Shown here one piece after another: positions 1 to 18,769 of a stretch of 19,842 bases of DNA (within the stretch, counting starts at the first letter, position 1; each line of letters starts with the position of its first letter). The translations under genes were made by a program, and so were the position numbers. The DNA is from a virus. The stretch spans positions 1 to 19,842 of the IMG/VR virus record IMGVR_UViG_3300045988_179637; one strand, given 5' to 3'. Under the pieces are notes generated by a model, which was given only the letters and a program-made list of their open reading frames with translations, had not been told where the DNA came from and did no database searches.

Positions 1-342
1 CAGGTTGTTCATTTTTTGGTCACAAAAAATGGCCCTTCTTTCCCAGGCCTTACCAACACAAACACACGTAGGGGCTGGTCCAATTACGGACGGGCCCCTT
101 GACGCTGCTCGTTTTTCGTTCAGACAAATCCACTCGTGTACGTCATCATGCATCTATTATTACATACTTCTTCTCTTCTCGCAACACCTAGAACCTTCTA
201 GTTCGTAACGGTTTCATAACATCTTGTGCTGTCCTGTCCAACCCTTGCAACAGCAAACTGTGCAATATGGAATGTTCATTTATTGCCAGGGGTGGGGCGG
301 GGCCGTAGAGTAGGACACGTCGAAAGGAACAAAAAATGAACA
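1..342. repeat. Left inverted terminal repeat (342 bp), the exact reverse complement of 19501-19842
   Basis: Bases 1-342 are the reverse complement of the last 342 bases. This was checked at both ends and in the middle, and the ORF-track entries 5..208(+) and 19635..19838(-) translate identically. Identity stops after ATGAACA at 342. Confidence 0.95.
266..318 (+). promoter_or_regulatory. Sigma70-like promoter inside the left terminal repeat: -35 TTGCCA (283-288), 17-nt G-rich spacer, -10 TAGAGT (306-311), upstream element GGAATGTTCATTT (269-281)
   Basis: Hexamers are close to consensus with 17-bp spacing and sit 25 nt upstream of the AAAGGA ribosome-binding site and ATG at 336. Nearly the same promoter recurs at 920-948. 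Confidence 0.6.
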
Positions 343-797
343 TTCATGCGGCCACCTACGTCGCTCGCGAACTCTCTGACCGTCTCTACGCCGCCGGCTT
401 CCGGGGCGTGTGCGACATGGATCGTATTGGGTCTGTCATCAGTGCGTACACTACGTATCATCGTGCCCGTAAGGGGCTCACTGAATACCTGGTTGGTTGC
501 GGCGTGCGCGGTGATTACGCGCCCCGTATCGCGGTCCTGGCGGAGCGGGCTTTCCGTCGTGGCGGTGGTGACTGGGGCGGTGCGGGAGCTTTCGCCACCA
601 TCTTGGTGGCGCTTAATGACGCGTCTGGAATGCTGCGCGACGACCCGTCGCGCGTGCGTTCCTTGACTCACGTGATGGAACAGTATGAGCGGGAGGAACT
701 TGACCGTGAGGGTGTGCGTAAGCGGTTGCGGCGGGGGTCATACTGGCGGGGGCGTCAATGGATTGCCAATGAGGTCATGTTGTATTGGTGCGCGTGA
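336..797 (+). CDS. Early hypothetical protein, paralog 1 of a three-member family (shares CDM(D/P)xI, GGAG(A)F...ML(R/A)xD and W.YW motifs with the next two genes)
   Basis: AAAGGA ribosome-binding site 9 nt upstream. A single gene sits between the promoter in the terminal repeat and a strong terminator. The start codon lies inside the terminal repeat. Confidence 0.7.
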   Translation: MNIHAATYVARELSDRLYAAGFRGVCDMDRIGSVISAYTTYHRARKGLTEYLVGCGVRGDYAPRIAVLAERAFRRGGGDWGGAGAFATILVALNDASGMLRDDPSRVRSLTHVMEQYEREELDREGVRKRLRRGSYWRGRQWIANEVMLYWCA

Positions 798-803
798 CGT
801 GCT

Positions 804-852
804 GAGGGTCCGGTTTCTGCCGGACCCTCTTTCATTCTTTTCATTCTTTTCC
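804..852 (+). terminator. Rho-independent terminator: stem GAGGGTCCGG / CCGGACCCTC, loop TTTCTG, then a T-rich tract TTTCATTCTTTTCATTCTTTTCC
   Basis: Perfect 10-bp GC-rich stem followed by a T-rich run, immediately after the stop at 797. Confidence 0.8.
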
Positions 853-892
853 TCTTCCAGATTACCACACTTTCACACGTTGCGCAACTTCA

Positions 893-918
893 AAATGAAC
901 AATCTAGAATGTTCATTT
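893..918. promoter_or_regulatory. 26-bp near-perfect palindrome AAATGAACAATCTAGAATGTTCATTT (two A:A mismatches) abutting the -35; candidate operator
   Basis: Arms AAATGAACA and TGTTCATTT with a TCTAGA core. The same 10-bp half-site (AATGTTCATT / AATGAACATT) flanks the promoter in the terminal repeat at 271-280 and 335-344. Confidence 0.55.
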
Positions 919-919
919 C

Positions 920-948
920 TTGCCACGGGCTGGCGGGGTCCCTACTGT
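920..948 (+). promoter_or_regulatory. Sigma70-like promoter P2: -35 TTGCCA (920-925), 17-nt spacer, -10 TACTGT (943-948)
   Basis: Same -35 hexamer, the same 17-nt G-rich spacer pattern (GGGnTGGnGGGGnCC) and the same upstream TGTTCATTT element as the promoter in the terminal repeat. It sits 40 nt before the ATG at 989. Confidence 0.6.
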
Positions 949-988
949 AGATGCAGGGCCACAAGGAAGGGCCAGAAAGGACACAACA

Positions 989-1390
989 ATGATCTACACA
1001 AGCGCAGCACTCGCCTACCTGCACGAGAATCCCTGCGACATGCCTGACATTGCCCAGGTCCGGGGGGATGTCGCGTGGCTGAAAGCTGGGGAAGGCTGGG
1101 CCGAGGTATGGCGGGACACCGAGCTTGCCTACCGGGACACCGCCCGCGACTACGGCACGGCCGAAGGGATCTGTGCAGCAATCGCAGAACTCGGCCCCGG
1201 ACTCCGGGGGACGGCCGCCCACCTGCTGGCGGGCGACATCCTCAAGGATGAGCCGATTCCTGAGGACCTTCCCGCCGTGGCAGGGACCGAGACCGCTGAG
1301 GGACTCGCAGCGCGAGTCTGGCTGTACTGGGCAGAGAATGACGGCTGTGATGGCCGTGACGTGTGTGAGGGTGTGGGGGTGCTGCGATGA
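989..1390 (+). CDS. Early hypothetical protein, paralog 2 (133 aa)
   Basis: ATG at 989 with an AAAGGA ribosome-binding site about 8 nt upstream, downstream of P2. The N-terminal part of the 920 ORF runs through the promoter and is rejected. Shares AYR...LLAGDIL...PIP...ARVWLYW...GC with the next gene. Confidence 0.65.
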   Translation: MIYTSAALAYLHENPCDMPDIAQVRGDVAWLKAGEGWAEVWRDTELAYRDTARDYGTAEGICAAIAELGPGLRGTAAHLLAGDILKDEPIPEDLPAVAGTETAEGLAARVWLYWAENDGCDGRDVCEGVGVLR

Positions 1391-1800
1391 GGTACGCGAG
1401 TAGCGCCGTTGCGTTCAACTCCCTGTTCTACCACTTGCCTTCCCTCACCTGTCCCCAGGGGGTTGCGCGTCTGCCGCAGGGCAGGAAGTGGCGGAGGCTC
1501 TACAGAGGGATCCTGTTCGCGTATCGCACGGCGGTGGCCGGTGGCGCAGGGTTCGAGGCCGCGCTTGCTGCGGCTGTTGACGCTGCGCAAAATCGTTTGT
1601 TCATTCCGGCCATGCTGGCCGGTGACGTGTTGCGTCAGCTGCCGTTCCCGTATGCGGATGAGCCGGTGTACATGCCACCGTGCCCGTCAGATATCGCACG
1701 AGGGGTCTGGCGGTACTGGGATGCGCATCCCTATGGGTGCGGGTCCGTTCCCCTGTACGAACAAGAGATTTTGATCGAGCCTTACTGGCTCAAGAAGTGA
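1387..1800 (+). CDS. Early hypothetical protein, paralog 3 (137 aa)
   Basis: ATGA overlap with the previous gene suggests translational coupling. Motifs AYR...MLAGDVL...PFP...ARGVWRYW...GCG align with paralog 2 and with GGAGAF...MLRDDP...W.YW in paralog 1. Confidence 0.65.
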   Translation: MRYASSAVAFNSLFYHLPSLTCPQGVARLPQGRKWRRLYRGILFAYRTAVAGGAGFEAALAAAVDAAQNRLFIPAMLAGDVLRQLPFPYADEPVYMPPCPSDIARGVWRYWDAHPYGCGSVPLYEQEILIEPYWLKK

Positions 1801-1813
1801 AAGGTTTTTTCGA

Positions 1814-2338
1814 ATGTTGGTTTCAATGTCATTGATCGATCGTCTCTCCGCAGTCATGTCCCCGGAAGAGCTCCCGCAACTCGGCGCTCTGATCGAGTGG
1901 GCCGAGGACCACGGCTACTACCCGGAGGACCTGATCGCCCCCGTCGTGGGCGACGATGCCCGTTGGGTGTATGATGCCTACCTGTCTCTCAGTGACGTGC
2001 GGGCCAGCCAGGCCAGCGCGGCCGGGCTGACCCTCGATGTCCGGGTGCGCATTCTTGAGGCCGTGGCAGCGGTGCCCGCCGCCATGGGGGTCTGTGCTCG
2101 CTGGGATGCTGCGGTGGCGGCAGCTGAGGGTCTCCCGTGCGCGCCGTGGGCGGCGGTGGCGGATGTCGCCATGCTTTTCGGTTGGCTGCCATCCCGTGAC
2201 CTGCTGTGCTATGTGATGCTTCACGCGTCTGATGGGGCTCGGCGTGCGGCCCGGACCGTGATGCTGCTGAGAGACGGCGTGGATCCCATGGATGCATGGG
2301 AAGGCAGCTACGGGGCTCTGTCTGTGGGGGGTGAGTGA
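1814..2338 (+). CDS. Early hypothetical protein (174 aa), Ala-rich
   Basis: AAAGG ribosome-binding site 9 nt upstream. Same strand and operon as the paralogs. No recognisable domain. Confidence 0.5.
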   Translation: MLVSMSLIDRLSAVMSPEELPQLGALIEWAEDHGYYPEDLIAPVVGDDARWVYDAYLSLSDVRASQASAAGLTLDVRVRILEAVAAVPAAMGVCARWDAAVAAAEGLPCAPWAAVADVAMLFGWLPSRDLLCYVMLHASDGARRAARTVMLLRDGVDPMDAWEGSYGALSVGGE

Positions 2339-2339
2339 C

Positions 2340-2876
2340 GTGACGGCTCGTCTTTGGCCGTCCGAGACGGCATCCGACATGATGCTGGCAATCATCCTGG
2401 CATACCGGCACAAGATGCCGCTGTGCCATGGCGACACGGTCCAGTTCGACGGACCGTGCGCGTCCCGGACGCGCATGGGTCGCGACAAAATTCTTGCCCG
2501 CCTGGTTGCGGATGGGATGGTTGTTCAGCGTCGGGAGGGTCGGCGTGTGCTGTCGCTTCCGACTGCGGCGGGACTGTCGGCGTGGCGTATGCCGATGCCT
2601 GATGACCGGTCCGTGTACCGCCTGCTCCGGGAGGGAGGAACTGACGTTTCCAGCGCCGCCAATGCCGTTCTGGGCCGTTCGCTCCGCAGGTTGTGGCGGC
2701 GGCACTACGCCATTGGCGCCGAGGCTCTGCGGGACCTCGAGCCGCTGGGGTGTGTGCGTCAGGATCGGTACACGGCCCGTCTGTGGGCCGCTCGCGATAC
2801 CGCCATGGTTGAGGCCGTGCTTGACGTGCTGCCTGGTTTGCACCCGTATCGGGTGCGAAAGTTGCTGATCCCGTAG
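2340..2876 (+). CDS. Putative winged-helix (MarR/ArsR-like) DNA-binding protein; start taken as GTG 2340 (alternative ATG 2382)
   Basis: Segment DKILARLVADGMVVQRREGRRVLSLPTAAGLSAW looks like a recognition helix plus wing. The GTG lies 1 nt after the previous stop with GGGGGG 8 nt upstream. The ATG at 2292 overlaps the previous gene by 47 nt, has no ribosome-binding site, and is rejected. Confidence 0.45.
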   Translation: MTARLWPSETASDMMLAIILAYRHKMPLCHGDTVQFDGPCASRTRMGRDKILARLVADGMVVQRREGRRVLSLPTAAGLSAWRMPMPDDRSVYRLLREGGTDVSSAANAVLGRSLRRLWRRHYAIGAEALRDLEPLGCVRQDRYTARLWAARDTAMVEAVLDVLPGLHPYRVRKLLIP

Positions 2877-2890
2877 CTCACGGGATGGGA

Positions 2891-2930
2891 AGGGGCCGTG
2901 CTGTTGGCACGGCCCCTTTCTTCGTTTCAC
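2891..2930 (+). terminator. Rho-independent terminator: stem AGGGGCCGTGC / GCACGGCCCCT, loop TGTTG, then CTTTCTTCGTTTCAC
   Basis: 11-bp GC stem plus a T-rich tail 15 nt after the stop at 2876. Ends the rightward early operon. Confidence 0.75.
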
Positions 2931-3112
2931 CTTGCGTTTACAGGTCGTGATTATCAAGTCACGGCCTGTTTCAGTTGCATGCGGGTGCTTCCTGAGACGT
3001 CATGGGCAGCGCTGTGCGCGTTTCTGACGGCCTTGCAGGCTGTCCGGGTACTAGGGTATGTGGGCAGGGTTTGAGGCTCTCTGAGGGGCGTGTAGCGCTT
3101 ACGGGTTTGCCG

Positions 3113-3143
3113 GTGGGGGAGTGGTGTGACCACTCCCCCACCA
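3113..3143. other. Perfect 13-bp-stem hairpin GGTGGGGGAGTGG-TGTGA-CCACTCCCCCACC in the non-coding convergence zone, followed by C-rich direct repeats (ACTCCCC, CTCCCCTACC x2, through about 3208)
   Basis: Read directly from the sequence. No T-tract follows on either strand, so it is not a classical terminator. Confidence 0.6.
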
Positions 3144-3315
3144 CTCCCCTATCGTGTGCGTAGCAGCATTTTGATTATTCACCCCTCCCCTACCGCTCCC
3201 CTACCGGTCGAATCGGCTTTGACTAGGGGTTTTGCTGTTGCCGGGTGTTGTGTGTCTCCCCTCTTGGTGGAATATTTATGATTTTCACCACTCGTTATTG
3301 AGAATCATTCTCATT

Positions 3316-3340
3316 TTCTGAAAAGGGCCCCTCGCCGGCC
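3316..3340 (-). terminator. Weak candidate terminator for the leftward late operon: GGGCC-GGCGAGG-GGCCC + TTTT on the minus strand, about 140 nt after the ATPase stop
   Basis: 5-bp GC stem with a 7-nt loop and a TTTT run. The surrounding sequence (3290-3480) is AT-rich. Confidence 0.3.
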
Positions 3341-3479
3341 CGTCAGCGAAAAAGTTGAACTCAAAAATTTTTGAAAATCTCCGCAACCAACAACAATCCC
3401 AGAATCATGAAACAAGCAGACAGATCAAGAATCACAAGACCCCCCTCCCATGATTTTTCCGACACCGTTTCCCCATCCA

Positions 3480-4499
3480 TCATCTTCCGGAGAACAATTG
3501 CACGAACCCATTCCGCACCGCGGCATTGTCAAAGGTCATACGCCCCTTCGAGAAAGCCGTACGAGCCATCTGCAACAACGGATTGTTCAACGGCACGAGA
3601 TACACACCACCACCGGCAAGCTCTGCATCGGTGGTGAAACACTTACCCCTCGAGGGACGCTTCCTGGTGCCGTGAAAATGGAGACGTTGTTCATTGTCGA
3701 ACCACTTCCACAAAGAAGTCTCATGCCCCTTGTGCGTTACAGTGAACTCGTATTGCGCGTCCTGCGGTTTCGGAGCAACCATCATCTTGTGATTGTCCCG
3801 GAACGTGTTCCCGACAGCGTATTCCTCGTATTCGGTGCCGGCAATGAACTGCCCGAACCTGGTCCGGCGAACGGATTGCTCGAACGCTGTCACACGCGGG
3901 AAGTGAAACACCGCGAAGCCGCGCTTCCGGCGCGACCATTCACGGTCAGCATCGGCCTCCAGGGCGACCATGTAAGGGTTCTCGATGCGCACGGCGTTGG
4001 CGAGGAAGAACACCCGCACTCTGTCATTCCACCTGTCCACGGTGTTGTAGAAGTTGTTGAACACCGAGAACTCGTCCGGCAAATACCGGACACACCCCTT
4101 TTCAATGATGAACTCATCGAACAGAATGGTGTCGAAGTCGTCAAACACCATCGACTTCATTTGCTGCGCTGTCGACAACGCGACGGCCATGCCGATCTGT
4201 ATCCACTTTGAGCCCTTTACTGGTTCGGGATCGTCGCAGATCTCGAAGTGATGCCCGCGAACGCGGAAAGCGTAATCCGGGAACTCCCGCCCGACGTCGA
4301 CGAACATGTTCTGAATCGTCCGCAGCTCATTTTTGTAGCGCCGCAGATAGATGAACTTCCGTCCGTTGACGATGAAGTCCTCGATACAAAGTTTCTTGGC
4401 ACCGTAGGTTTTGCCAATGCCACGGCCACCAACAACGAAGTTGTATGTGCCGTTCTTCTCCAACAAAGGATCGAAGTCGTAGTACTCGATATTGCTCAT
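3480..4499 (-). CDS. DNA encapsidation (packaging) ATPase, phi29 gp16 homolog
   Basis: Motifs NFVVGGRGIGKTY (Walker A), FIYLRRYKNEL, REFPD, ILFDEFIIEKG (Walker B), RVRVFFLANAV, RRTRFGQFIAGTEYEEY and RMTFDNAAVRN align block by block with phi29 gp16. ATGA overlap with the upstream gene. Confidence 0.95.
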   Translation of the reverse strand: MSNIEYYDFDPLLEKNGTYNFVVGGRGIGKTYGAKKLCIEDFIVNGRKFIYLRRYKNELRTIQNMFVDVGREFPDYAFRVRGHHFEICDDPEPVKGSKWIQIGMAVALSTAQQMKSMVFDDFDTILFDEFIIEKGCVRYLPDEFSVFNNFYNTVDRWNDRVRVFFLANAVRIENPYMVALEADADREWSRRKRGFAVFHFPRVTAFEQSVRRTRFGQFIAGTEYEEYAVGNTFRDNHKMMVAPKPQDAQYEFTVTHKGHETSLWKWFDNEQRLHFHGTRKRPSRGKCFTTDAELAGGGVYLVPLNNPLLQMARTAFSKGRMTFDNAAVRNGFVQLFSGR

Positions 4500-5854
4500 G
4501 GCTTCAATCCTAGACTTTGCAGCCAGGGAATGCAGTTCTTGGAGGAGTAGATGTTACCCGGGGTGATTCCTTTCGGGTAATACTCGAAGTGGCAGTGAAC
4601 TCCGAATGCCCGTCCGGTCTGCCCCATCAACGCAACCGTCTGCCCCGCGGTCACCCTCTGCCCCTTCGAGACGAGAACCTTCTGCGCGTGGCAGTACATG
4701 TACGACTCCCCAGTGGCGGCCTGTATCGCAACGTGGTTCCCGGCCCAGGCTTTCGCCGTGTCGCCCACGACCGTGCCGTCGGTGACGGCCAGCAAAGGGG
4801 TGCCGGCCGCCCCTGCGAAGTCCGTGCCCGTATGGTATCGGGCCCAGGCGCCAGTTTCCCCGAAGCCTGCGGAGATCCTGTACTTCCCTTTCTCCACGGG
4901 GAGGCTGTACTTCCCGGACGGTGGCGGGGCGGGTGGGGTTCCGGGATCGTCATCATCGCCTCCGCCGGGCACCTTGCCGTGTGATGCCTGGCCGGCGGGC
5001 ACCCACATGCCCGGCTGGGTGGGTGTCATCATCTGCTTGTTTCCGGATGTCCAGTGCACCACCATGGATCCGTTGTGCAGCTGAATCAGCCGGATGTCGT
5101 CGGAGCCCCCGTTGTCGCCGTCGATCGGTGGCGGTGGCGGTGGCTGTGGGTCGCTGCCCCCTCCGTCGCCTCCGGGGGTTCCGGGTAGGGTGTCGCCGGC
5201 GTAGGGATCGACTTCCACACCGCCCCGCATGCCGGGTTTCAGCGTGTACCCCGGGAATGGTGGACTCGTGTCCCACTTGTCGATCGCGGCCTTCGCCTTC
5301 GTGTAACGGCTCCAATATTTCGTGAAGCTGCCGCCGACGGAGCGAAGTGCGTTCATGTAGGTGTCGAGGGACGGGTTCGATCCGGCGATCCTGACGGCCT
5401 TGTTCGTCCCAACCGGCCACTGGTGATTGGAGACGATGAACATGATCGTCGTCTTCGGAACGACATCGGGGTCGATGCCCTTCCGCTTGGCGAGGGCTAG
5501 GTAGTCGCCCATGTCCTGGTTTGCGGTGACGTGCTGCACCCACTTCGTCAGCGGCCGCACCATCACGGCCCGGATGGGTGCGAGTTCTTCCTTGCGCAGC
5601 CACAGCGAGTTCCACGCCTCCGAGGAGGGGCCGTTGGTTTCGAGCATGGAGCGGAGCCGGCCGGGCAGCATGGCGTACCCGGCCGGATCGTACTTCCGGA
5701 TCCTCGAGATCAACCTGCCCGCCCGCACCCCATACCACTGCATGATGCCGATCGTGATCGGGTCGCCGGTGTAGATGTCCGTATAGGACAGGTTGGATTC
5801 CACCAGCCCGAGGACGTGGATGGTGACGTTGAGTTCCGGAGTTCCGAATGCCAT
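4496..5854 (-). CDS. Tail-associated peptidoglycan hydrolase, phi29 gp13-like: N-terminal lysozyme-like domain, Pro/Gly/Asp-rich linker, C-terminal peptidase M23 (LytM)
   Basis: C-terminal motifs YHTGTDFAG...GNHVAI...GVHCHFE (HxxxD / HxH) are an M23 signature. Position between the gp12-like and gp16-like genes matches phi29 gp13. The start at ATG 5854 is 1 nt after the upstream TGA. The longer ORF reaching 5941 would overlap gp12 by 86 nt and is rejected. Confidence 0.8.
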   Translation of the reverse strand: MAFGTPELNVTIHVLGLVESNLSYTDIYTGDPITIGIMQWYGVRAGRLISRIRKYDPAGYAMLPGRLRSMLETNGPSSEAWNSLWLRKEELAPIRAVMVRPLTKWVQHVTANQDMGDYLALAKRKGIDPDVVPKTTIMFIVSNHQWPVGTNKAVRIAGSNPSLDTYMNALRSVGGSFTKYWSRYTKAKAAIDKWDTSPPFPGYTLKPGMRGGVEVDPYAGDTLPGTPGGDGGGSDPQPPPPPPIDGDNGGSDDIRLIQLHNGSMVVHWTSGNKQMMTPTQPGMWVPAGQASHGKVPGGGDDDDPGTPPAPPPSGKYSLPVEKGKYRISAGFGETGAWARYHTGTDFAGAAGTPLLAVTDGTVVGDTAKAWAGNHVAIQAATGESYMYCHAQKVLVSKGQRVTAGQTVALMGQTGRAFGVHCHFEYYPKGITPGNIYSSKNCIPWLQSLGLKP

Positions 5855-5855
5855 G

Positions 5856-7571
5856 TCAGATTGCGTTCCCTTGCGTGTCCTTCCAGCCCTCGAGGGTGAA
5901 GATGCACAGTTTGTTCTTGCCGGTGTGCCAATACATGGCACCCATCATGGATTTCGCAGCATCCCCGAAGGAAGGGAGGGTGTCGCCGTAGCCGGTGACG
6001 ACGGCCCCGTTCAACGGGGACGCGATGTGCTGGCCGGCGTGGAACACCTGCTGGCCGCCACGATCCTGGTTCACCCTGTACGGGAACGTCGCAACGGTGG
6101 TTCCGGGCTTCCTTGGGCGCATGTACCGGTAGGCGCCGGTGGACATGTTCGTGTTCGAATCGCCGAGAGCGATGACCTGCAACGCGCCCGGGTTGGTTTC
6201 ATTCGTGTCGATGATGAAACCGGCGTCCTCGTTCGGAGAACCTCCCTTGTAGAAGTTGCCGATGAGGTTGAGGTTCTCGCCGGAGCCTTGCTGGGAGGCG
6301 TCCCAGATGGCGCGGTGGTTGGGAAGGTAGATCTGGCAGCCGATGGCGGTGGCGGAGGCGCCGCCGCCACGGAAGTGCAACAGCCTGCGGCTCTCGGCCT
6401 GGATCTGCTTGTCGCTCTCGAAGTAGGTCCCGAAGATGCTGACCTGGCAGTTCGTGTTCAGTTCGATCGCGGTCTGATACGCCTCGATGGCGCCACCGTT
6501 GATGCGGCACATGGTGCCCTCCCTGAGGATGACACCCATTTTCCCGTTCTTGTCGCCACGGTCGGCCATGATGTGAGGCTCCGTCACGGCGAGGTTGTAG
6601 CAGTAGTTCGCGTCGACTGCGATCGTGTTCCACCACCACTTGCAGCGATCCAGTTGGGTGTACCAGTTTTGTTCCAGGTACACCGCTTTGTCCCATTTCA
6701 GGAAGTAGCAATCCCTGATGGTTGCGTAGTTCTTGATGTGCAACCCGATGCAGCCGAGGCGTTCGAAACCCGGGCCTTCGAGGCGCATGCGTTCCATGAC
6801 GTTGCCGTACTTCAAGACGATGCCCTTGGATTCTCGCATGTCGAACACAAGGGAGGAGTCGGGTTCGTTGTCGCCCCACTGCCCGGAGGTTCCGGCAATG
6901 TACTGGTCCTCGAGGAACTCCAAGGAACCAGTGACCCGGTACACACCCTTGGGGAAGTACACATGGCCACCCTTCCCGGCAGCAGCGATCGCTTTCCGGA
7001 TGGCAGCGGTGTCGTCGGTTGTTCCGTCGCCGGTGGCTCCGTGGTCCTTGACGACCTCGTAGTGGCGGTTGGCCTTCTTGGCTGCGAATTCCCGCACTTC
7101 CTTGACCTCCCGGTCGACCTTGGCGGTCAGTTCGGTGCGGGCGGTGCCGACGAGCTGCTCGAGGGAGGCACGGGCCTGCGCGACCTGGTTGGTGAGGTCG
7201 GTGCGGAATTGCTGAATCGTGGCGTCGGTGTCGCTCTTGTATTTCCCGAACACCTTGTCGAACTGCGCCGTCGTGTACGTCAACAACTCTTCGCCATTCA
7301 TCATGGCGAAGTGAATGATTCCGTTCTCGTCGTCGTGAACGGTGTGATGCACGAACTTGGCGATGAACTCGTTGATCTTGTTCGTCGAATCCGTGACGAA
7401 CTTCTCGATCGCCTTGTCCTGAATGCCGTGCGCATTCACCAACTCGTTAACCTTGTCCTTGATCTGCGCAAGCACATCGAGGAATGTGTACGCATCGGAG
7501 TGGGTGAATGCGACAACGGAGTTGATCGGACCGATCGGGCCGATTGGTGCAATGTAGGGGGCTATGGGCAT
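5856..7571 (-). CDS. Pre-neck appendage / tailspike-like protein (phi29 gp12-like) with a right-handed beta-helix (pectate-lyase fold) depolymerase domain
   Basis: VKDHGATGDGTTDDTAAIRKAIAAAGKGGHVYFPKG matches the N-terminal cap of pectate_lyase_3 / phi29 gp12. Gene order follows connector then lower collar. TGATG overlap with the lower-collar gene. Confidence 0.8.
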   Translation of the reverse strand: MPIAPYIAPIGPIGPINSVVAFTHSDAYTFLDVLAQIKDKVNELVNAHGIQDKAIEKFVTDSTNKINEFIAKFVHHTVHDDENGIIHFAMMNGEELLTYTTAQFDKVFGKYKSDTDATIQQFRTDLTNQVAQARASLEQLVGTARTELTAKVDREVKEVREFAAKKANRHYEVVKDHGATGDGTTDDTAAIRKAIAAAGKGGHVYFPKGVYRVTGSLEFLEDQYIAGTSGQWGDNEPDSSLVFDMRESKGIVLKYGNVMERMRLEGPGFERLGCIGLHIKNYATIRDCYFLKWDKAVYLEQNWYTQLDRCKWWWNTIAVDANYCYNLAVTEPHIMADRGDKNGKMGVILREGTMCRINGGAIEAYQTAIELNTNCQVSIFGTYFESDKQIQAESRRLLHFRGGGASATAIGCQIYLPNHRAIWDASQQGSGENLNLIGNFYKGGSPNEDAGFIIDTNETNPGALQVIALGDSNTNMSTGAYRYMRPRKPGTTVATFPYRVNQDRGGQQVFHAGQHIASPLNGAVVTGYGDTLPSFGDAAKSMMGAMYWHTGKNKLCIFTLEGWKDTQGNAI

Positions 7572-8278
7572 CAGAATCTACCTCCGTACATGAAGCCCGG
7601 GAAGAAAGGTGGCATGATCCATGGTATCGGCTCGGGAACGATCCGCTGACCCGAACTCCACACATTCATGAACAAGTCCGAGAGATTGTTGAGCACGTGC
7701 CCGTCAACATTGATGTAAGAGGACAGGTATTCACCCATCAGCCGGGTGACCGATCCCTGACGGCCCGAGGAGTCGTTGAGGGCGTCGTTGATGGTCTCGG
7801 CAGTGGAACGGCCGCTGCTGGTGCCGGTTCCGTCACTGCTGGACGACGAGCGACCGCCAGATGTTGCGTAGTCCCCGTCGCTCTTGAGCATCTGCTGTGG
7901 AAACTGGCTGGACAGTGATCCGGACTTCGTCAATGACGTGTTAGTCGACTCCCCAGACTCCGTGCTGGACGACTTCGTCGTACCCTTGTTGACCGACTTG
8001 ATCTCGTACGTCGACAGAATGTCGCCGACGTTGGCGATCGCAAGATAGGCCTGGTTGAACATTGGCATGTCCCGGTATAGGCGTCGGCGGAGTTCGAAGA
8101 AGAACAGCTCGTACGTTTCCTGGCCAACCTCGCGCAGCCAGTAGTGTTCGAGAATGATGCGATTCAGCCGGGGCCGGTAGGCCTCGGAGAAAATCGGATA
8201 CGAATCCAACCCAGTATCGAGATTCAAGCGCTTCGCATACTCGATTCCCTGCCGGAGTTCCCCGGTGTAATCAGACAT
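7571..8278 (-). CDS. Putative lower collar protein (gp11 position) with a long Ser/Thr/Gly-rich low-complexity segment
   Basis: Located between the connector and appendage genes as in phi29 and overlaps the connector gene by 8 nt. Assignment is by synteny only. Confidence 0.5.
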   Translation of the reverse strand: MSDYTGELRQGIEYAKRLNLDTGLDSYPIFSEAYRPRLNRIILEHYWLREVGQETYELFFFELRRRLYRDMPMFNQAYLAIANVGDILSTYEIKSVNKGTTKSSSTESGESTNTSLTKSGSLSSQFPQQMLKSDGDYATSGGRSSSSSDGTGTSSGRSTAETINDALNDSSGRQGSVTRLMGEYLSSYINVDGHVLNNLSDLFMNVWSSGQRIVPEPIPWIMPPFFPGFMYGGRF

Positions 8279-9197
8279 TCAATCCAGCCTTCCCATTCTC
8301 CCGTGCGTTCGTTTCGGCCTTGTACGTCAAGTCTGGGATGACGTTCTCGTCGAACGCCCACTTCACCGACACATCCAAACCGAACTTGCGGTTCATCTCC
8401 TCAACTGCCTGCTGCCTCGGCTTGTTGAACGAATTCCGGGCCGCAATGACTTGCCCATCCCTCGAGGACGCCTCGTCAGCCACGAGACGCTCCTTCTTGG
8501 TCTCATCCACACTGGTGATACCCATGAACGTCAACGCCTCCCGCCACAGGTGCTGCCATTCCTTGCGGGTCTGCTCAAGATAGGCGGGCTGGATCTGCAT
8601 ATCGAGAGTGCTGATCACCTGATCGTAATTCAGCTCCGGGTAGCCGAAGATCACCGGAGCACCTTGATCCCAATCCCTCAGCAGGTTCGCGTAGGTCTGT
8701 TTCTGCCCTTCCGGGCAGGTGATGATTTTCGTCACCCTCAGGTTCTTCGTGAGGATCTCGAGTGTGGTGGTGACGTCGCCGAGCCGGGCTGCGAAGTCGA
8801 GCATCTGGTCGGCGATCCCGCGCCGTGAGTTGGTGCCCCACACGGCCACACACTCTTCCTTGGGGAGTTGCAGCGACACGTACGGTGGCGGCGCGTAGGT
8901 CGTGTACGAAGTTGCGTTGCCGTACAGGTCGAGAGGGCCGGAGGGGGAGGCTGCGGCCATCACCCAGTCGTCGTATCGGCCGTCCCAGTACAGCACAACC
9001 AGGCCGCCGTAGTACAGCTGCTTCTCAACAAACCGGACATCAATGGATTCGGGTAGGCCTTCCCATTCGAAACGGGCCATGCACCATTCCGACAGCTTGT
9101 CGTAATAGCCTGCGGTGCGCATGTTCCCGAGACCGATGTGATTCCGCGGTATGAACCGGGACATCACTTCATGGGGGTTGTACTGATTCCTGCTCAT
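8271..9197 (-). CDS. Head-tail connector (portal), phi29 gp10 homolog, 309 aa
   Basis: FEWEGLPESIDVRFVEKQLYYGGLV, GAPVIFGYPE, WREALTFMGITSVDETKKERLVADEASSRDGQV and FGLDVSVKW align with phi29 gp10 (FEWENLPPTINPSFLEK..., [52 protein letters not shown]). The length equals phi29 gp10. The start at ATG 9197 forms an ATGA overlap with the tail-knob stop. The N-terminal extension to 9413 is rejected. Confidence 0.9.
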   Translation of the reverse strand: MSRNQYNPHEVMSRFIPRNHIGLGNMRTAGYYDKLSEWCMARFEWEGLPESIDVRFVEKQLYYGGLVVLYWDGRYDDWVMAAASPSGPLDLYGNATSYTTYAPPPYVSLQLPKEECVAVWGTNSRRGIADQMLDFAARLGDVTTTLEILTKNLRVTKIITCPEGQKQTYANLLRDWDQGAPVIFGYPELNYDQVISTLDMQIQPAYLEQTRKEWQHLWREALTFMGITSVDETKKERLVADEASSRDGQVIAARNSFNKPRQQAVEEMNRKFGLDVSVKWAFDENVIPDLTYKAETNARENGKAGLNV

Positions 9198-11386
9198 AGC
9201 ACAACCGTACCCCATCGGTTTCCCGTGGGGGCATTGTCCGCGATGTCGAGGTGAATGATGTGGTCGGGATTCCGCCACACGGTCACACCGCGCAGGAACA
9301 TGCCCTTGATAGTGGACTTGTACAGCTCTGGCATGAATGCGGTGTCCATGGTCACGTCCGCCATTTTCCAATAGCAGAAGTTGCTCATGGGCAGCAGCTC
9401 CGATGCATTCCAATACCGGTTTAGCGCATAGCCGTATCGCAGCCAGTACTCGCCGAGCCGTTCAACAGCGACCTGGTCGACGGTCTTCACCCGCACATTG
9501 ACCGTGTATCCCTGCTCATTGATCAAAGCGGAGAAGTTCCCTCCGAGCTGGCCGGACACGGAGGGTTGCAGCATCTTCGCGTCCTGAACCTTTGCGTTGA
9601 TGCCCGCGATCGCCATGCGTGCGTCGCCGGCAGCGGTCGCCTTGGCCAGGGAAAGATTGCTGTTCGCAATCCCACGAGAAAGGTTGTTGGAGATGCGGGT
9701 GCGGCCGGCGAGTTCGTCGTTGGCGATGGCGTTACGCCCGTTTATGGATATGTTGTTGATCTGATGATCCATCCAGGCATTCCCGACACCCATGAGGCCG
9801 TTGATGGCACCCCCGAGAAGGTTTCCGGAGGCCATCTGTGACAAGCCTCCGACACCACTGTTGATTCCCTGCTGCATGGACTTCAACCAGTTCAGCTCCC
9901 GCCCCAACGATGCGTTTCGGTTAGTGATGTCACGGCCGAGATCCGCGTTCTGCTGGGAGGCGTCAATGCCCATCATTGCCTGTTGGAATGCGGTGTTGGC
10001 GCCCATCATGGCCCGCTGCTGCGCCCAGTTGACGCTGTCATTCTGGAACGCCAACTGGTTCTTGTTACTAGCGAGGTAGTCGAGATATGAGTTGTTGGTG
10101 ATCGGCAGCTGAGGGTATTCCGTGATCACCGTGCATGCGTCCAGGTACGCCCCACCCCACGGGTCCTGCCGGAACCTGCGGCCGTAATTCAATGGGTAGA
10201 TAACGGTGCGCGGATTCGGGGGGATGATGCAGGCGGAGATCTGCAATTCAAGCCTGTTGCCGGAGAACAACTCGGGTTTCAGGATCACCGGTGAACCGGT
10301 GTATGTGGTGAGTTCGAACGCCGAATACGGATGTGTTGCGAACTTGACAAGGTGCTGATATCTGGCGGGAATGCGGGCCATCATGGTTGTGGTGATGTCC
10401 GGCGTCACTTCCTGCCGATAGGTGAAGGAACCGGTGACGAGCTTCCGCGTGGCGGCATCCCGGCCCAGGAAGGATTCCCCACCACCGAAGCTCTCGGGCA
10501 GCAGGGGCACGATGAAGCACGCCATGATGGAGCGTGACGCCCAGGGGGCGTTCTTCAGGGAATCCATGACGGTTACGAAGTGATCCGCGCTCGTAAACCA
10601 CAGGTCGGCGCCGACGGACACCGACACGCGACGGTACTGGTTGACCGTGCCCTCACCGTTCTGTTTCCGCTCGGTGGAGTGCAGATCGATGTTGGAACCT
10701 TTGGACGTGTTCAGAACAGGATTCTGGGTGGTGCCGGGATCGGTGGTGAGATCGGCCGAGGCGAAGAAAACGATGCTGTACGCGCCGTCGCCACGCGACT
10801 GGGGGTGCCGGATGCGGTGGCGCAGATAACCGGTTTCGATCATGTCGGCGCCACAGTCCAGGCCTTCGGGAACGAGGAGGTTCTTCAACCCGGTTTCGGT
10901 GCCGGCACCGGCGACCAGGAATGACAGATGACCGCGCTCGACGTAGCAGCGACCGAGAGTGACTTCCCACTGGAAACTGGACCACACATCCAGCTGAAGG
11001 TGGAATGCCGTGGTCTGCGGGGCAATGTGCTCCACCCCCTTGACAAAATAGTAGAAGGTGAGCGGCCCATCATTGTGGGTCTCCTTGTTCGTCACCCTCA
11101 TGAAGTTGTAGCCGTACGCCGACGACAGTGGAATGTCGAGGAGGACGTCCTGTTCGGGGCGGGCGTAGGAGAGTTCATTGAACTTGATGCGGGGTCCGGG
11201 GGAGGTTTCGAGGTACTTGTCCAGAGCTGCTCTGGATTCGAACTTGACAACGTTGTTGTATTCGGAATCCCATGGCACGTTGCACAACGTGACTTCGGTG
11301 CCGGGTCCCCAGATGTCGTAATTGAACACCGAACCCGCCGGCAGGACGGGACCGGCGGGTTCGATGTCGAAAGGTGTGGCTGTCAC
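9194..11386 (-). CDS. Tail knob / distal tube protein, phi29 gp9 homolog, with an expanded Q/N/G-rich loop; GTG start
   Basis: N-terminal VTLCNVPWDSEYNNVVKFES aligns with phi29 gp9 [21 protein letters not shown]. C-terminal YGYALNRYW...GVTVWRNPD aligns with YGYKINRVK...GITLWHTDN. An in-frame stop sits 9 nt upstream of the GTG. Confidence 0.85.
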   Translation of the reverse strand: MTATPFDIEPAGPVLPAGSVFNYDIWGPGTEVTLCNVPWDSEYNNVVKFESRAALDKYLETSPGPRIKFNELSYARPEQDVLLDIPLSSAYGYNFMRVTNKETHNDGPLTFYYFVKGVEHIAPQTTAFHLQLDVWSSFQWEVTLGRCYVERGHLSFLVAGAGTETGLKNLLVPEGLDCGADMIETGYLRHRIRHPQSRGDGAYSIVFFASADLTTDPGTTQNPVLNTSKGSNIDLHSTERKQNGEGTVNQYRRVSVSVGADLWFTSADHFVTVMDSLKNAPWASRSIMACFIVPLLPESFGGGESFLGRDAATRKLVTGSFTYRQEVTPDITTTMMARIPARYQHLVKFATHPYSAFELTTYTGSPVILKPELFSGNRLELQISACIIPPNPRTVIYPLNYGRRFRQDPWGGAYLDACTVITEYPQLPITNNSYLDYLASNKNQLAFQNDSVNWAQQRAMMGANTAFQQAMMGIDASQQNADLGRDITNRNASLGRELNWLKSMQQGINSGVGGLSQMASGNLLGGAINGLMGVGNAWMDHQINNISINGRNAIANDELAGRTRISNNLSRGIANSNLSLAKATAAGDARMAIAGINAKVQDAKMLQPSVSGQLGGNFSALINEQGYTVNVRVKTVDQVAVERLGEYWLRYGYALNRYWNASELLPMSNFCYWKMADVTMDTAFMPELYKSTIKGMFLRGVTVWRNPDHIIHLDIADNAPTGNRWGTVVL

Positions 11387-11402
11387 ACCAATTCAGTATA
11401 GC

Positions 11403-11639
11403 CTACTCGGCATGTTTCGGTGAGGGTTTCGCAATGTCATACACGCCCGCGGCGGCGAGACCAACGATGAGCCCTTCGGACAGGGCCTTCACCCAGGCGA
11501 CATCGGCGTGCTGCGCGGCGAACACGGCGAGCACACCGACGACGAGCGACACGACAGGGGCGGCCGCGGCGGGAAGCCCGGCCTTCTTGAGCAGGTTGAC
11601 GAGTGCCAGCACGGCCGGCACGGTCGCGATCTCAATCAT
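11403..11639 (-). CDS. Putative holin (78 aa, 2-3 predicted transmembrane helices)
   Basis: MIEIATVPAVLALVNLL...VVSLVVGVLAVFAA...LIVGLAAAGVY is hydrophobic with a charged C-terminus. GGAAGGAAA ribosome-binding site. ATGATTGA overlap with the upstream gene. The TTG-start extension to 11714 is rejected. Confidence 0.55.
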   Translation of the reverse strand: MIEIATVPAVLALVNLLKKAGLPAAAAPVVSLVVGVLAVFAAQHADVAWVKALSEGLIVGLAAAGVYDIAKPSPKHAE

Positions 11640-11871
11640 TGGTTTCCTTCCAGAGTTCTTCGAGTTTCGGCGGCTCCGGTGAATCCGGGCGCCGGTACCT
11701 GTAGTACAGGTCAACGAGTTGACGGTACACCATCCACAGTGAGTTGATGCGGCGATTTTCCCGCTCGAGCTGGTTTTCGAGCCGGGTCACACGCTGCCAC
11801 GTGTGACCCAGCACGACCGCAACGCCACCCAGCACCCCGACGGTGAGGGTGACGTCCAGCAGTGGGGGCAT
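11632..11871 (-). CDS. Small membrane protein (N-terminal transmembrane helix plus coiled coil); lysis-associated (second holin, antiholin or spanin-like)
   Basis: LLDVTLTVGVLGGVAVVLG transmembrane segment, then a charged helical tail. Lies between the peptidase and the holin. Confidence 0.4.
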   Translation of the reverse strand: MPPLLDVTLTVGVLGGVAVVLGHTWQRVTRLENQLERENRRINSLWMVYRQLVDLYYRYRRPDSPEPPKLEELWKETND

Positions 11872-11872
11872 G

Positions 11873-12532
11873 TCAGTTCTTCCCGCTCACAGCCGCGATG
11901 AGCTGTCTCAACAGCTCATTGGTCTTCTCCAACTCGGTTGCCACCATGCCGGTGCGCGACGCGGTGAGCGAGATCATCTCGTTGTTGTTGAGTTCGCTGT
12001 GAAGCTCGCGACGGAATTCCTCGGCAAGCATCTCTTCTCCTTCCACAGCCCCTCCGAGTGGGCTGTCATCGACGAGGTGGAGGGCCTGGTCGCCTCCACC
12101 GAAGTAGGCGTGCACGTGGTCACGGTGCGCCTCGGACACGCCACCCGTGTAGAGCCACTTCCACGTACCACGATCGGGATTCCACGATCGGGCGATTCCC
12201 TCATTGTAGATGTCGAAGATGATCCACCTGAGGTTGATGTGACGGGCGTTGACCTGGAACCAGCGCACCAACTTGAGTGCGTTGTCGCGTTCCTGCGGGG
12301 TGGGCAGCACACCCACCTTGCGGGAAATGATGAAGTCCTGGGCGTTGCCGGAGGAGTGCTCGTGGTTGAGGTCCACGAGTTTCCAGTTGCGCCGCACCCA
12401 GTTGGGTTCACCTTTCCCCTGCCCCAGCCAGATGCCTGCTGGAAGGCGAGGGAAGAGGTGCTCATCAACACGACGCACATTCATGTTGACAGCACCCACC
12501 CCGTTCGGCAGTTGAATGCTCACTTGGGCCAC
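11873..12532 (-). CDS. Putative endolysin: LAS-type zinc metallopeptidase (peptidase M15 / VanY-like)
   Basis: NHEHSSGNAQD fits the M15 motif HxxGxAxD, and DHVH fits the downstream HxH zinc ligands. Adjacent to two small membrane proteins. Confidence 0.5.
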   Translation of the reverse strand: MAQVSIQLPNGVGAVNMNVRRVDEHLFPRLPAGIWLGQGKGEPNWVRRNWKLVDLNHEHSSGNAQDFIISRKVGVLPTPQERDNALKLVRWFQVNARHINLRWIIFDIYNEGIARSWNPDRGTWKWLYTGGVSEAHRDHVHAYFGGGDQALHLVDDSPLGGAVEGEEMLAEEFRRELHSELNNNEMISLTASRTGMVATELEKTNELLRQLIAAVSGKN

Positions 12533-13905
12533 TTCACCTTGCCGGCATCGCTATCGACGGCAACGTCGGTGGAGAAGGTGACCTTCGGATCCGACGCCGC
12601 CTTGGCGGTCACCGCCAGTTTCGCCGCTTCCTCCTCGGCACCGATGAACAGCACCCCGTCCTGTGTGACGACGGTGCGCGGATCGGTGTTGCCGGCAACA
12701 CTCCAGAGGATGCCATGCTGGTCGAACTCGGAACCGCCGGTGCGGGTCATGGTGGCGTTCAGCAAGTACAAGAACCCGGGCGCCACCTTCTCAACCGTCT
12801 TCTCGGCAATGTCGGTGACACCGATGGCGGTGATCTTGGTGATCTTGCCGTGATCGACGGTTGCGGTGGTGACCTCTTCACTCGTGAAGAGCACCGCATT
12901 GGCGAACAGACTGGCGCCGATGATCTCGTGGTGATGGAGCCAGAAATTCTCGTACAACCCCATGGGGTTCGCGAACGACCTGTTCTCATACAACACGTCC
13001 CCGCAGACGAAGAACTTTTTGTCCACGAGAATTGCCTGCATCTTCGGAATACCGATGTACTCCGCGGGCACCTTGATGATGCGATAGTCGATACGACCCT
13101 TCTCCATGTTGAACATGGCAGCGAGTGCATCAACGTCAATGGTTGCAGCAGCCTCGGGAGTGACGAACAGGATCATGTCCTCCGTGTTGGACCAGGTGGG
13201 CAGCTTCAACGGATTGTACTTCTCCGACAGGTACACGAGCTTGTCAGCAGTGGTACGGATGGCCTTGATCAGTTTCTTGGCCTCGGCCTCACCAGCCGTC
13301 GCGGCGGTGACATCGGGAACCTGGATCTTCGTGAACCCGCCATTGGCGTAATGCTCACGCAACAAGGAGGCCATGAGCAGAAACTCGTCCCAGTTGTCAG
13401 AGGTGACGGGAGCCTGCATGATCTGGGCGACGAGATCGCCGAGGCCACCACTGGAGAGCATGGCGCGCCGCATCATGGCCTCGGAAATGGAAATCTGGTA
13501 CATGTCCTCCCGGTTGGTGTGGTAGAACGTGGATTCGATCCGCGGCAGACGGCGCCGGAAGATCTCGGTGCCGTATTCCCTGTTGTTGTACCAGTGCTCG
13601 GCCTCGATGAGACCAACGTAGATGTCCTCGATCTTGCCGCCGTAGTCAAGCACGGCACGCTTGAACTCGGAAAGCTTGTTCGTCCAGGGACGGGCGCCGT
13701 CGATGTAGATGGTGGACACGACATTCACCAGGTTGGTGACAAACTCGTTCCGGATCAGAGGGTCGCGGAGAATGTTCTTGCCGAGTTCGACGAAGTTCGA
13801 CTGGGTCGCTTCGGGAATGCGGCGCTGGAAGTCGAACGAGCCGTTGGCGCGGAGGGTGTTTATGATCTGGGCGTTGGTTGCGCCCTGATACTTCGGTGCG
13901 GGCAT
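12520..13905 (-). CDS. Major capsid protein, phi29 gp8 homolog
   Basis: ALAAMFNMEKGRIDY, QAILVDKKFF, ANPMGLYENFW and ASLFANAVLFTS align with phi29 gp8 VLAKAFNMNRTDF, EAVLVDKDWF, RNPRGLYWNYY and SRFANAVAFVS. Preceded by a small acidic gene. Confidence 0.9.
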   Translation of the reverse strand: MPAPKYQGATNAQIINTLRANGSFDFQRRIPEATQSNFVELGKNILRDPLIRNEFVTNLVNVVSTIYIDGARPWTNKLSEFKRAVLDYGGKIEDIYVGLIEAEHWYNNREYGTEIFRRRLPRIESTFYHTNREDMYQISISEAMMRRAMLSSGGLGDLVAQIMQAPVTSDNWDEFLLMASLLREHYANGGFTKIQVPDVTAATAGEAEAKKLIKAIRTTADKLVYLSEKYNPLKLPTWSNTEDMILFVTPEAAATIDVDALAAMFNMEKGRIDYRIIKVPAEYIGIPKMQAILVDKKFFVCGDVLYENRSFANPMGLYENFWLHHHEIIGASLFANAVLFTSEEVTTATVDHGKITKITAIGVTDIAEKTVEKVAPGFLYLLNATMTRTGGSEFDQHGILWSVAGNTDPRTVVTQDGVLFIGAEEEAAKLAVTAKAASDPKVTFSTDVAVDSDAGKVKWPK

Positions 13906-13917
13906 GAGTTTCCTTTC

Positions 13918-14196
13918 TCAGTGTGCGGTTTCTCGAGGGAACATTGTTTCCCGCAAGTGTTCCCAGGACCAGTCTTCCGGTTCCTCGGTTGTGGGGGTGC
14001 CGACCTGCCTGGTCAGGGTGTGGCGCAGGTCCGTGTACTTCTTGTCCAGTGCGTCGATGCGCTGGTGGAAGTCGCTCATCATCTGTTCCGCGATCTCCTT
14101 GAATCGCTCGCCAAGATCCTGAACCGGCTCGTTCGACACTTCAACGGGCTGCTGTTCGTAAACTTCTTCCGCCCCGGAGTTGTCGGTGTTTTCCAT
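13918..14196 (-). CDS. Putative scaffolding protein (92 aa, highly acidic, helical)
   Basis: Sits immediately upstream of the capsid gene, like phi29 gp7 (98 aa). Strong AAAGGAG ribosome-binding site. Assignment by position and composition only. Confidence 0.45.
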   Translation of the reverse strand: MENTDNSGAEEVYEQQPVEVSNEPVQDLGERFKEIAEQMMSDFHQRIDALDKKYTDLRHTLTRQVGTPTTEEPEDWSWEHLRETMFPRETAH

Positions 14197-14343
14197 GTGT
14201 CTGCTCCTTTCGATTGAGTGACGGTCGGCCGGTGGGACACCACTCCCTGACTGCCGGGCCCTTTCACGGGTGGTTCCGGTTCAGCCGTCTCCGACCGCCG
14301 CCACAAATGGCTTCACGACCTCCTGGGCCGCTGCCATGACCCA

Positions 14344-15999: not shown

Positions 16000-17077
16000 G
16001 TTTCTTCTCTAGTTCCTTTTGGTACTTCACGGTACGCCGTTTCCGTTCACGCGCCCTCTGCGCACCCGCCTTCCGGATTCGTTTCTTGGCATCCTCATCC
16101 GAAGAAGCCTGGATCAGCGGTTTCTTGTGCACATACCCAGCAGCGGCGGAACGTGCCCTGGCCTCCGCGCGGCGCATGTTGTACCGGTCCTGCTCGGAAT
16201 ACTCAGGCTTGTACCATGACGGAGGCTCATTGAACAGCGGCTTGCGACGCCGCTTGTACAAGTCGCCCGGGGTGTAGCCGTCGGCCCAGTCGACGGCCCG
16301 TTTGATCTCTTCCTGTTCCCACCACAGCGCATCCTCGCGGTTCGCACGCTCGGTGGCCTCGGTCTGCGGGTCCAGAATGATCTGTGTCTCAATGTAGGCC
16401 AGCCGAAGGTTGCTGGAGAAGTTGCGGTTGAACAGCCACAGCATCTCGACCTGGGCACCAGTGAGTTGTTGCACCTTCGGCACCAGTGCCGGATAGACAA
16501 GCCCAACCATTTTCTCCATCGAGGCCCTCGCGGAAGCGATTCGTTTCTCCTTGTGCTCCCGGGTAAACACATTCTCATTCAACTCGGTGAGGCGCCGCAG
16601 AGAGTTCTCGTTGGTAATCTGGTGGGGCATGCGATTCACCTTCACCAGATCATCGGGTGAGGACTTCGGCACCCTTTCAGGATGAACGGATGGAATGACG
16701 ATTCTTCGCCAGTCACCGTAGCTGGAGTCAATGTTGGGGGAAGTGGCTCGTTCAATCTTCTCGAGTTTCCGCTTCACCCCAGCATTACGTTTCTTCTCGG
16801 ACTTCTTATACTTCCGCCACTGCTCAGAAGTGACGAACTTGCCGTTCCCGAGCATGACGAACGAGTTCTTTCGGGAATTGAATGATTCGAAGCGTTGAAT
16901 CGCCGCATCCAATTGCTTGTTGGTGTAACCGGCCATTTTCTTCTTGTCCAGCGGAGGGGCTTCAACAGCGGTGTGGCCTTCACGTTTCCAGTACTGAACC
17001 TTGCGCTTGGCCCTGTGGTGCAGCTTCGCGAGATACTCGCGCTTCTCCCGGAGATTCATGATGAAACGGGCCCCCAC
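15983..17077 (-). CDS. Putative terminal protein (priming protein); alternative start ATG 17059
   Basis: Highly basic and charged 364-aa protein immediately upstream of the protein-primed polymerase, overlapping it by 17 nt. Gene order terminal protein then polymerase matches phi29 and Cp-1. No sequence alignment was attempted, so the call rests on position and composition. Confidence 0.55.
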   Translation of the reverse strand: MGARFIMNLREKREYLAKLHHRAKRKVQYWKREGHTAVEAPPLDKKKMAGYTNKQLDAAIQRFESFNSRKNSFVMLGNGKFVTSEQWRKYKKSEKKRNAGVKRKLEKIERATSPNIDSSYGDWRRIVIPSVHPERVPKSSPDDLVKVNRMPHQITNENSLRRLTELNENVFTREHKEKRIASARASMEKMVGLVYPALVPKVQQLTGAQVEMLWLFNRNFSSNLRLAYIETQIILDPQTEATERANREDALWWEQEEIKRAVDWADGYTPGDLYKRRRKPLFNEPPSWYKPEYSEQDRYNMRRAEARARSAAAGYVHKKPLIQASSDEDAKKRIRKAGAQRARERKRRTVKYQKELEKKHGDEE

Positions 17078-17097
17078 CCGTGAAGGGTGAGGGCCCG
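17068..17097. other. 12-bp-stem hairpin GGGCCCCCACCC-GTGAA-GGGTGAGGGCCC (one mismatch) that covers the candidate terminal-protein start region
   Basis: Read directly from the sequence. On the minus strand it is followed by GTTTCATCATG. Confidence 0.5.
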
Positions 17098-17120
17098 CCC
17101 TGTTCCCCTTCTGCGCGGCA

Positions 17121-18699: not shown

Positions 18700-18769
18700 T
18701 CTTGCCGGCGAAACAGTCCGCCATCAATTTAATGTATGACCTGATCATGGCCACACAATCCCCCCTTCC

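Follow-up and report, generated by a model that had tools for sequence, protein, structure and literature searches.

Introduction

In phage phi29, genes 17 and 16.9-16.5, together with promoter C2, form an early operon at the right end of the genome that is convergent with the packaging ATPase gene 16, and p56, an inhibitor of uracil-DNA glycosylase (UDG) of 56 amino acids (aa), is encoded at the other arm. Actinomyces phage Av-1 carries at its right end a short arm of hypothetical genes, open reading frames (ORFs) A-D, convergent with its main operon. Genes beside phage genome ends make up a fast-changing accessory set, which is the usual source of new host-takeover and anti-defence proteins. 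Here we describe such an arm, five plus-strand genes termed A to E, at the left end of the IMG/VR virus record IMGVR_UViG_3300045988_179637, analysed over its whole 19,842 nucleotides (nt; hereafter the window). An earlier, sequence-only reading had described three ORFs of this arm, A (336-797), B (989-1390) and C (1387-1800), as diverged paralogs. All three are present at these positions; B and C are old duplicates of one another, and A is not detectably related to either. The analysis thus removes a false paralogy, that of A, defines a two-member family with its conserved residues, and adds a regulatory map of two putative promoters (P1 and P2), a terminator and a candidate operator.

The assignment of the window to a phi29-like phage was borne out. 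Positions 1-342 are 100% complementary to 19501-19842, and because of this perfect 342-bp inverted terminal repeat the window can be taken as a complete linear genome. From 3480 to 19507 the window is read on the minus strand, whose products include the phi29-type packaging ATPase gp16 (3480-4499, minus strand), an M23 peptidase, a pectate-lyase-like tail protein, lower collar, connector and tail knob proteins, a phi29-type capsid protein, a protein-primed family-B polymerase and a phi29-type SSB; a gene of 364 aa occupies the position of the terminal protein. The nearest isolate is Av-1, with a polymerase that is 49% identical, and a megablast search with the whole window gave no match at the DNA level among GenBank phages.

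Genes A-E are the only plus-strand arm of the window and are convergent with gp16. In position they resemble the phi29 gene 17-16.5 operon, being small genes that run inward from a genome end toward gp16. In contrast to that operon, the products have no homology to p17, p16.7 or their neighbours, the first gene here would be a separate unit driven from the terminal repeat, and B and C are paralogs. Protein B is small, strongly acidic (pI 4.3) and encoded in an arm that is presumably early, all of which recalls p56, the example offered in the sequence-only reading; it is, however, 133 aa long and has a basic paralog. No p56 homology was found by tblastn against 50,697 GenBank phage records (E<=1) or in Pfam and PHROGs, and at the same threshold none of A, B, C, D and E has a match among these records. 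The arm shares its general layout with the right end of Av-1, but the ORFs there have 40-90 aa, and tblastn finds no resemblance between them and A-E.

Relationship of genes A, B and C

Gene B encodes an acidic protein (net charge -14); its ORF can be extended to TTG 920, and orthologs as well as an AAAGGA ribosome-binding site favour ATG 989. Gene C encodes 137 aa with an isoelectric point (pI) of 9.1. As judged from sequence comparison, the two are paralogous over their whole length. BLASTP aligns them with E=4e-8 and 30% identity over 128 aa, hhalign gives E=2.3e-15 with ortholog alignments and E=8.8e-18 with extended alignments, and the Smith-Waterman score (z=13.5) is reached by none of 1000 shuffles. 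The similarity recurs in four other genomes (z=7-11.5), and a hidden Markov model (HMM) of the B/C family, run against the six-frame translation of the window, matches both genes at E=1e-56 to 1e-65. Common to B and C only are AYR, (L/M)L-x-G-D-x-L, a proline-rich loop (PxP), (A)R-x-V-W-x-Y-W and a G that follows it. Both display full-length colinear similarity together with A-Y(R), G-D-x-L, P, V-W-x-Y-W and G, the features by which we define the family. These comparisons show that B and C arose by a single, old tandem duplication and form a helical family of ~135 aa, confined to an Av-1-related metagenomic clade.

Gene A encodes a basic protein of 153 aa (pI 9.5) with eight predicted helices, an orphan encountered in metagenomes only. 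It does not join the family in any comparison. The BLASTP E values are 0.76 for A-B and 5 for A-C, the corresponding Smith-Waterman z values are 0.25 and 1.1, and hhalign against B/C remains at E=0.08-0.39 with a probability below 1%. Applied to 23 members of the A family, the B/C HMM scores no higher than 1.7 bits, a value equal to the 95th percentile for shuffled A. In the six-frame translation of the window it does not match A even at E<=10, and A lacks the features that define the family. A search of 1.84 billion representatives with the same HMM returned B, C, a diverged B (P0090) and a 70-aa B/C hybrid (P0091), with no A among the matches. Pairwise statistics against chance, which the sequence-only reading had itself named as the decisive test, thus place B-C far above shuffled sequences and A at their level. 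The claim of three diverged paralogs stands for B and C on the basis of BLASTP, hhalign and shuffles, and is wrong for A, for which all sequence and profile tests are at chance.

A single, very diverged family with A as its most diverged copy would agree with the presence of three small helical proteins in one arm. It could also draw on hhalign, which repeatedly aligns A 69-93 (AYRRGGxDWGG...) with the AYR...DG region of B/C (E=0.12-0.39) and matches the C-terminal I..V..YW at E=0.08. With permissive gap penalties, which favour a chain of short motifs, A and C of the window moreover reach a z of ~3. Unrelated pairs from the same genome, however, come equally high (z 2.5-2.8), and the signal is gone in orthologous A-C pairs from four genomes (-0.4 to 0.9), so we read it as chance. 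All standard statistics are likewise at chance level, the B/C HMM picks up no A in 1.84 billion proteins, and the motifs that would link A to the others are not conserved within the A or B families. Since permissive gaps, extended profiles and HMMs with shuffled controls were all negative, A was rejected as a distant member of the B/C family. We consider a common origin of all three very unlikely; by every sequence and profile comparison made here, A is not detectably kin to B and C.

The ordered motifs on which the three-member array had been based fare accordingly. AYR, LAGDxL, PxP, VWxYW and G hold between B and C, whereas CDMD/CDMPDI, GGAG(A)F and the YW of A are not conserved. CDMPDI of B is lost in diverged B orthologs, and the C family does not keep GGAGF, most C orthologs having DGxSFE where the window's C has this motif. 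In two related genomes (L005 and L007; relatives are designated by L numbers) the diverged A orthologs have VDLSRI/VDLNRF and TAPEAV/ESPEAF in place of CDMDRI and GGAGAF, and the terminal YW is missing.

Several further observations concern the B/C family. Many C orthologs contain a 24-nt segment that encodes IPAMLAGD (helix 4) and has a second copy 165 nt further upstream, within the N-terminal loop, which is variable (for example 900-923 and 1065-1088 in L003, 1618-1642 and 1783-1807 in L005); the copies are 84-88% identical, and the window's own C does not have the duplication. Orthologs of C that seem truncated at 117 aa are of full length, as their frame runs upstream to a GTG overlapping B. 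Long repeat proteins among the HMM matches (P0092-P0094) were set aside because they give multiple short repeat-like matches, P0092 being visibly an internal-repeat protein. A GH65 glycoside hydrolase from an Actinomycetota metagenome-assembled genome (L015, 2094-4850) contains SPDIARAVWRYWEA, which is near-identical to the C-terminal helix motif of C. This protein was the one match in a scan of a genome collection and has the 9-mer IARAVWRYW in common with C. We attribute the match to chance, because the search pattern had itself selected for it; the rest of the alignment is weak, and the exhaustive HMM search lists no protein of such length.

The structure models of A and C, both helical, differ from each other. 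For C, five main helices in a bundle and a short C-terminal helix are predicted, with a predicted local distance difference test (pLDDT) of 76 and a predicted template modelling score (pTM) of 0.74; for A, the eight helices are predicted with pLDDT 67 and pTM 0.62. The earlier statement that no known domain is recognisable was upheld by searches of Pfam, PHROGs, NCBIfam and PDB, none of which gave a credible match. B and C have no match in Pfam, PHROGs or NCBIfam, and for A the NCBIfam scan gives only two matches (E=0.025 and 0.083), both of them sub-threshold by a wide margin. PDB sequence and profile searches gave matches at chance level only, the B/C family has no PDB or viral-structure match, scans of IMG/VR returned none for A, B or C, and an exact sequence look-up found no record for protein C. 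B and C are hence an orphan all-helical family that falls in no described family, located in an arm of a familiar class, that of variable accessory cassettes.

Selection and divergence

Homologs of A, B and C were found in metagenome assemblies only, on contigs of ~18-20 kb or fragments thereof, and have no Pfam domain. They comprise 22, 18 and 49 ortholog clusters for A, B and C, respectively, with conserved length and frame. At 59-65% G+C the region holds many overlapping ORFs on both strands, which might suggest that some or all of the arm ORFs are chance open frames in G+C-rich DNA. This possibility is ruled out by the 18-49 clusters for each gene and by ratios of nonsynonymous to synonymous substitution rates (dN/dS) of 0.08-0.37 for A, B and C; ribosome-binding sites, promoters and terminator are in addition correctly placed and conserved, and the probability that we assign to chance frames is negligible. 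All three ORFs are thus real genes, and purifying selection acts on them.

Comparison of the window with five related genomes by amino-acid identity, dN and dN/dS reveals strikingly different rates in the arm and in the adjoining core. The gp16 ATPase is 97-98% identical, with dN ~0.02 and dN/dS 0.02-0.03. The corresponding values are 42-88%, 0.08-0.60 and 0.08-0.36 for A, 49-86%, 0.08-0.47 and 0.14-0.36 for B, and 59-74%, 0.18-0.33 and 0.12-0.37 for C. Genes D and E behave similarly, with identities of 40-76% and 51-88%, dN of 0.16-0.61 and 0.08-0.46, and dN/dS of 0.19-0.39 and 0.11-0.42, respectively. As dS is similar across all genes (0.5-1.8, partly saturated), the arm can be said to change its protein sequence 4-30 times faster than the packaging ATPase, in agreement with the fast divergence proposed earlier. 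The near-identity of the ATPase in spite of a dS of 0.6-1.0 (L001-L009) is in itself an unusually sharp contrast with the adjoining arm.

Charge is kept in each lineage. The pI is acidic for B (4.1-4.9) and for D (4.1-4.4), neutral to basic for C (5.8-9.1), basic for A (9.1-9.7) and very basic for E (8.6-11.2). In all relatives B and C remain oppositely charged.

Gene content of the arm

Downstream of C, the same operon continues with the acidic gene D (1814-2338, plus strand, 174 aa), which is unrelated to A, B or C, and with the very basic gene E (2340-2876, plus strand), of ~178 aa if translation starts at GTG 2340. This start is probably the right one, rather than ATG 2382 or ATG 2292, because LWPSETA upstream of ATG 2382 is kept in L005, L007 and L009. 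By eye, E could be a winged-helix protein.

Among relatives A comes first in every case that covers this end, and E is the last plus-strand gene called in all except L016, whose contig ends after D. Between them the order is B-C-D-E in the window and L001, and also in L003, with an internal deletion in B (87 aa), and in L005, with a shortened D. In L009 the order is B-D-C-E, and in L007 a remnant of D, down to 37 aa, stands between B and C, which are followed by E. L017 (37-1634) has D-B-E without C on a contig that begins at P2 and so leaves the position of A uncovered. L016 carries a B/C hybrid (1-414) followed by D; the two parts of the hybrid are joined at the VWxYW segment, where B and C are 78-79% identical in DNA. 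As this contig is of 980 nt at 9x coverage and begins at P2, the hybrid may be an assembly artefact. Gene D thus moves, shrinks or is lost among relatives, and the suggestion that copy number might vary holds for B/C, which are present in one to two copies and in varying order.

Promoters, terminator and candidate operator

Within the left inverted terminal repeat (1-342) lie the putative P1, a ribosome-binding site and ATGAACA, the 7 nt with which gene A opens. P1 is a sigma-70-like promoter (TTGCCA-17-TAGAGT, 283-311, plus strand) that lies inside the repeat and is conserved in L001, L005 and L007. On either side of it stand TGTTCATTT (273-281) and the complement of this 9-mer, AAATGAACA (334-342). 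The repeat reaches 7 nt into gene A, so that an identical promoter, ribosome-binding site and ATGAACA, with the first two codons, are found at the right-end gene (19507), which heads the strand with the SSB, terminal-protein and polymerase genes. The right-end replication strand would therefore start from an identical P1, and it is on this ground that we infer the arm to be early.

Gene A is followed by a predicted intrinsic terminator (804-829, plus strand), in which an 11-bp G+C-rich stem precedes a T-rich tract (folding energy -23.8 kcal/mol, z=-6.0). The hairpin persists in relatives although its stem differs in sequence there, a pattern of compensatory change. With P1 in the terminal repeat and this terminator behind it, A is likely to be a single-gene unit, as had been proposed.

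Genes B to E follow P2 (TTGCCA-17-TACTGT, 920-948, plus strand), which is conserved in five relatives and lies within a 67-nt copy (884-950) of the P1 region that is 75% identical to it. A consensus scan did not list P2, because its -10 element matches at only 3/6 positions, and the promoter was read from the sequence. Directly upstream of the -35 element, a conserved perfect palindrome of 9+8+9 nt, AAATGAACA-N8-TGTTCATTT (893-918), is a candidate operator. Our comparison shows B-E to follow what would be a diverged P1 copy carrying this palindrome. The A-B spacer is 85% conserved among relatives, in many comparisons above the amino-acid identity of the flanking genes.

The 9-mer TGTTCATTT has eight exact copies, all of them in the two terminal repeats, extreme termini included, or at P2 (6-14, 273-281, 334-342, 893-901 and 910-918, with mirror copies in the right repeat). 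With one mismatch allowed there are 14 matches, and 3.7 would be expected by chance.

The start and stop codons of B, C, D and E overlap or nearly touch. At the junction of B and C, the overlap ATGA is consistent with the translational coupling behind P2 that had been suggested for the pair. The C genes of L001 and L005 begin with a GTG that overlaps the 3' end of B, and B and C appear coupled wherever they are adjacent.

Possible functions

Taken together, the observations are best explained by orphan genes of an accessory arm, among which B and C are duplicates and A is unrelated, with a probable early co-control of the arm and with B and C as possible binders of a host factor. We hold this account as a whole to be moderately probable. 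Confidence is high for its structural and evolutionary part, and the proposal that B and C bind host factors is a tentative one. The arm genes are host-interaction candidates because, at 40-88% identity, they are fused, deleted and reordered in phages whose ATPase is 97-98% identical. For the Av-1-like phages of Actinomycetota, a group without known functions of this kind, the arm offers a set of such candidates, and the literature holds nothing on the arm genes of this clade.

Under this explanation all three promoters, P1 at either end and P2, would fire early and be jointly controlled through the TGTTCATTT sites. A would be transcribed alone from P1 and stopped at its own terminator, while acidic B and neutral to basic C would be made in matched amounts, possibly as a heterodimer. 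The conserved AYR, GDxL and VWxYW would hold the helical fold while the surfaces diverge, and B and C would act as non-enzymatic binders of a host factor, be it a defence or a takeover target. The palindrome may be bound by A, possibly a DNA-binding regulator of these promoters, or by E.

Several points weigh against this explanation. The pair of B and C is not obligatory, given the single B-like gene without C in L017 and the one hybrid in L016, and D or its remnant sits between the two in L007 and L009. The role in takeover or anti-defence is argued entirely from position, rate and the lack of enzymatic motifs, and the early timing entirely from promoter identity with the end that carries the replication genes. 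The structure models are of moderate confidence (pLDDT 67 for A). As to A, its resemblance to TetR-family helix-turn-helix (HTH) regulators is weak: the protein is ~50 aa shorter than typical TetR proteins, a Pfam scan gives no family and leaves TetR_N unmatched (E<=0.1), and a PDB sequence search at E<=10 finds no TetR chain.

As the main alternative, B, C and the arm could be functional analogs of the phi29 gene 17-16.5 operon, with a role in genome pull-in or in the organisation of protein-primed replication. The arm lies at the same position, directly downstream of and convergent with gp16, and is transcribed inward from the genome end; its products of 133-178 aa are similar in size to p17 and p16.7, and the TGTTCATTT sites connect the genome termini with the putative early promoters. 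Yet no similarity exists to GenBank phage proteins or to Pfam or PHROG families, and a rate of change 4-30 times that of the core is not what one would expect of housekeeping replication proteins. Deletion, fusion and reordering among phages with ATPases 97-98% identical would be equally unexpected, and we regard such an analogy as unlikely.

The explanation as accessory host-interaction genes can be carried one step further, to a B-C heterodimer of previously unseen helical fold that neutralises a defence system of oral Actinomycetota. Among known anti-defence proteins with solved or predicted structures, no characterised inhibitor has a likeness in sequence or fold. This more specific proposal is speculative and quite improbable; if true, high-G+C phi29-like phages would have in this heterodimer their first described anti-defence factor.

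Other features of the window

Beyond E, a non-coding stretch (~2877-3360) is conserved among relatives far above the arm proteins. It holds GGGGAGTGGTG/CCACTCCCC repeats and a hairpin that resembles a terminator of the minus-strand operon. The stretch is a candidate packaging-RNA (pRNA) site, Av-1 having a packaging RNA annotated in the equivalent arm. Rfam searches of the window and of 2800-3500 gave no credible family and no match to a pRNA model, and consensus folding of the stretch revealed no covariation, because the sequence is too conserved. Adjacent to it lies a conserved ORF of 40 aa with a hydrophobic core (3361-3483, minus strand), which overlaps the packaging ATPase gene at the stop codon of the latter; among six related genomes, five have this ORF called, L009 being the exception.

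The outermost 21 nt of the genome (CAGGTTGTTCATTTTTTGGTC, 19822-19842) recur in inverted orientation where the right repeat has its inner edge (19496-19516); this copy, 95% complementary, extends over the start of the right-end gene. On the left side, 330-342 and 3-17 have only ~12 nt in common. The inverted copy could be relevant to the formation of the repeat, or to a protein with binding sites at both origins and promoters.

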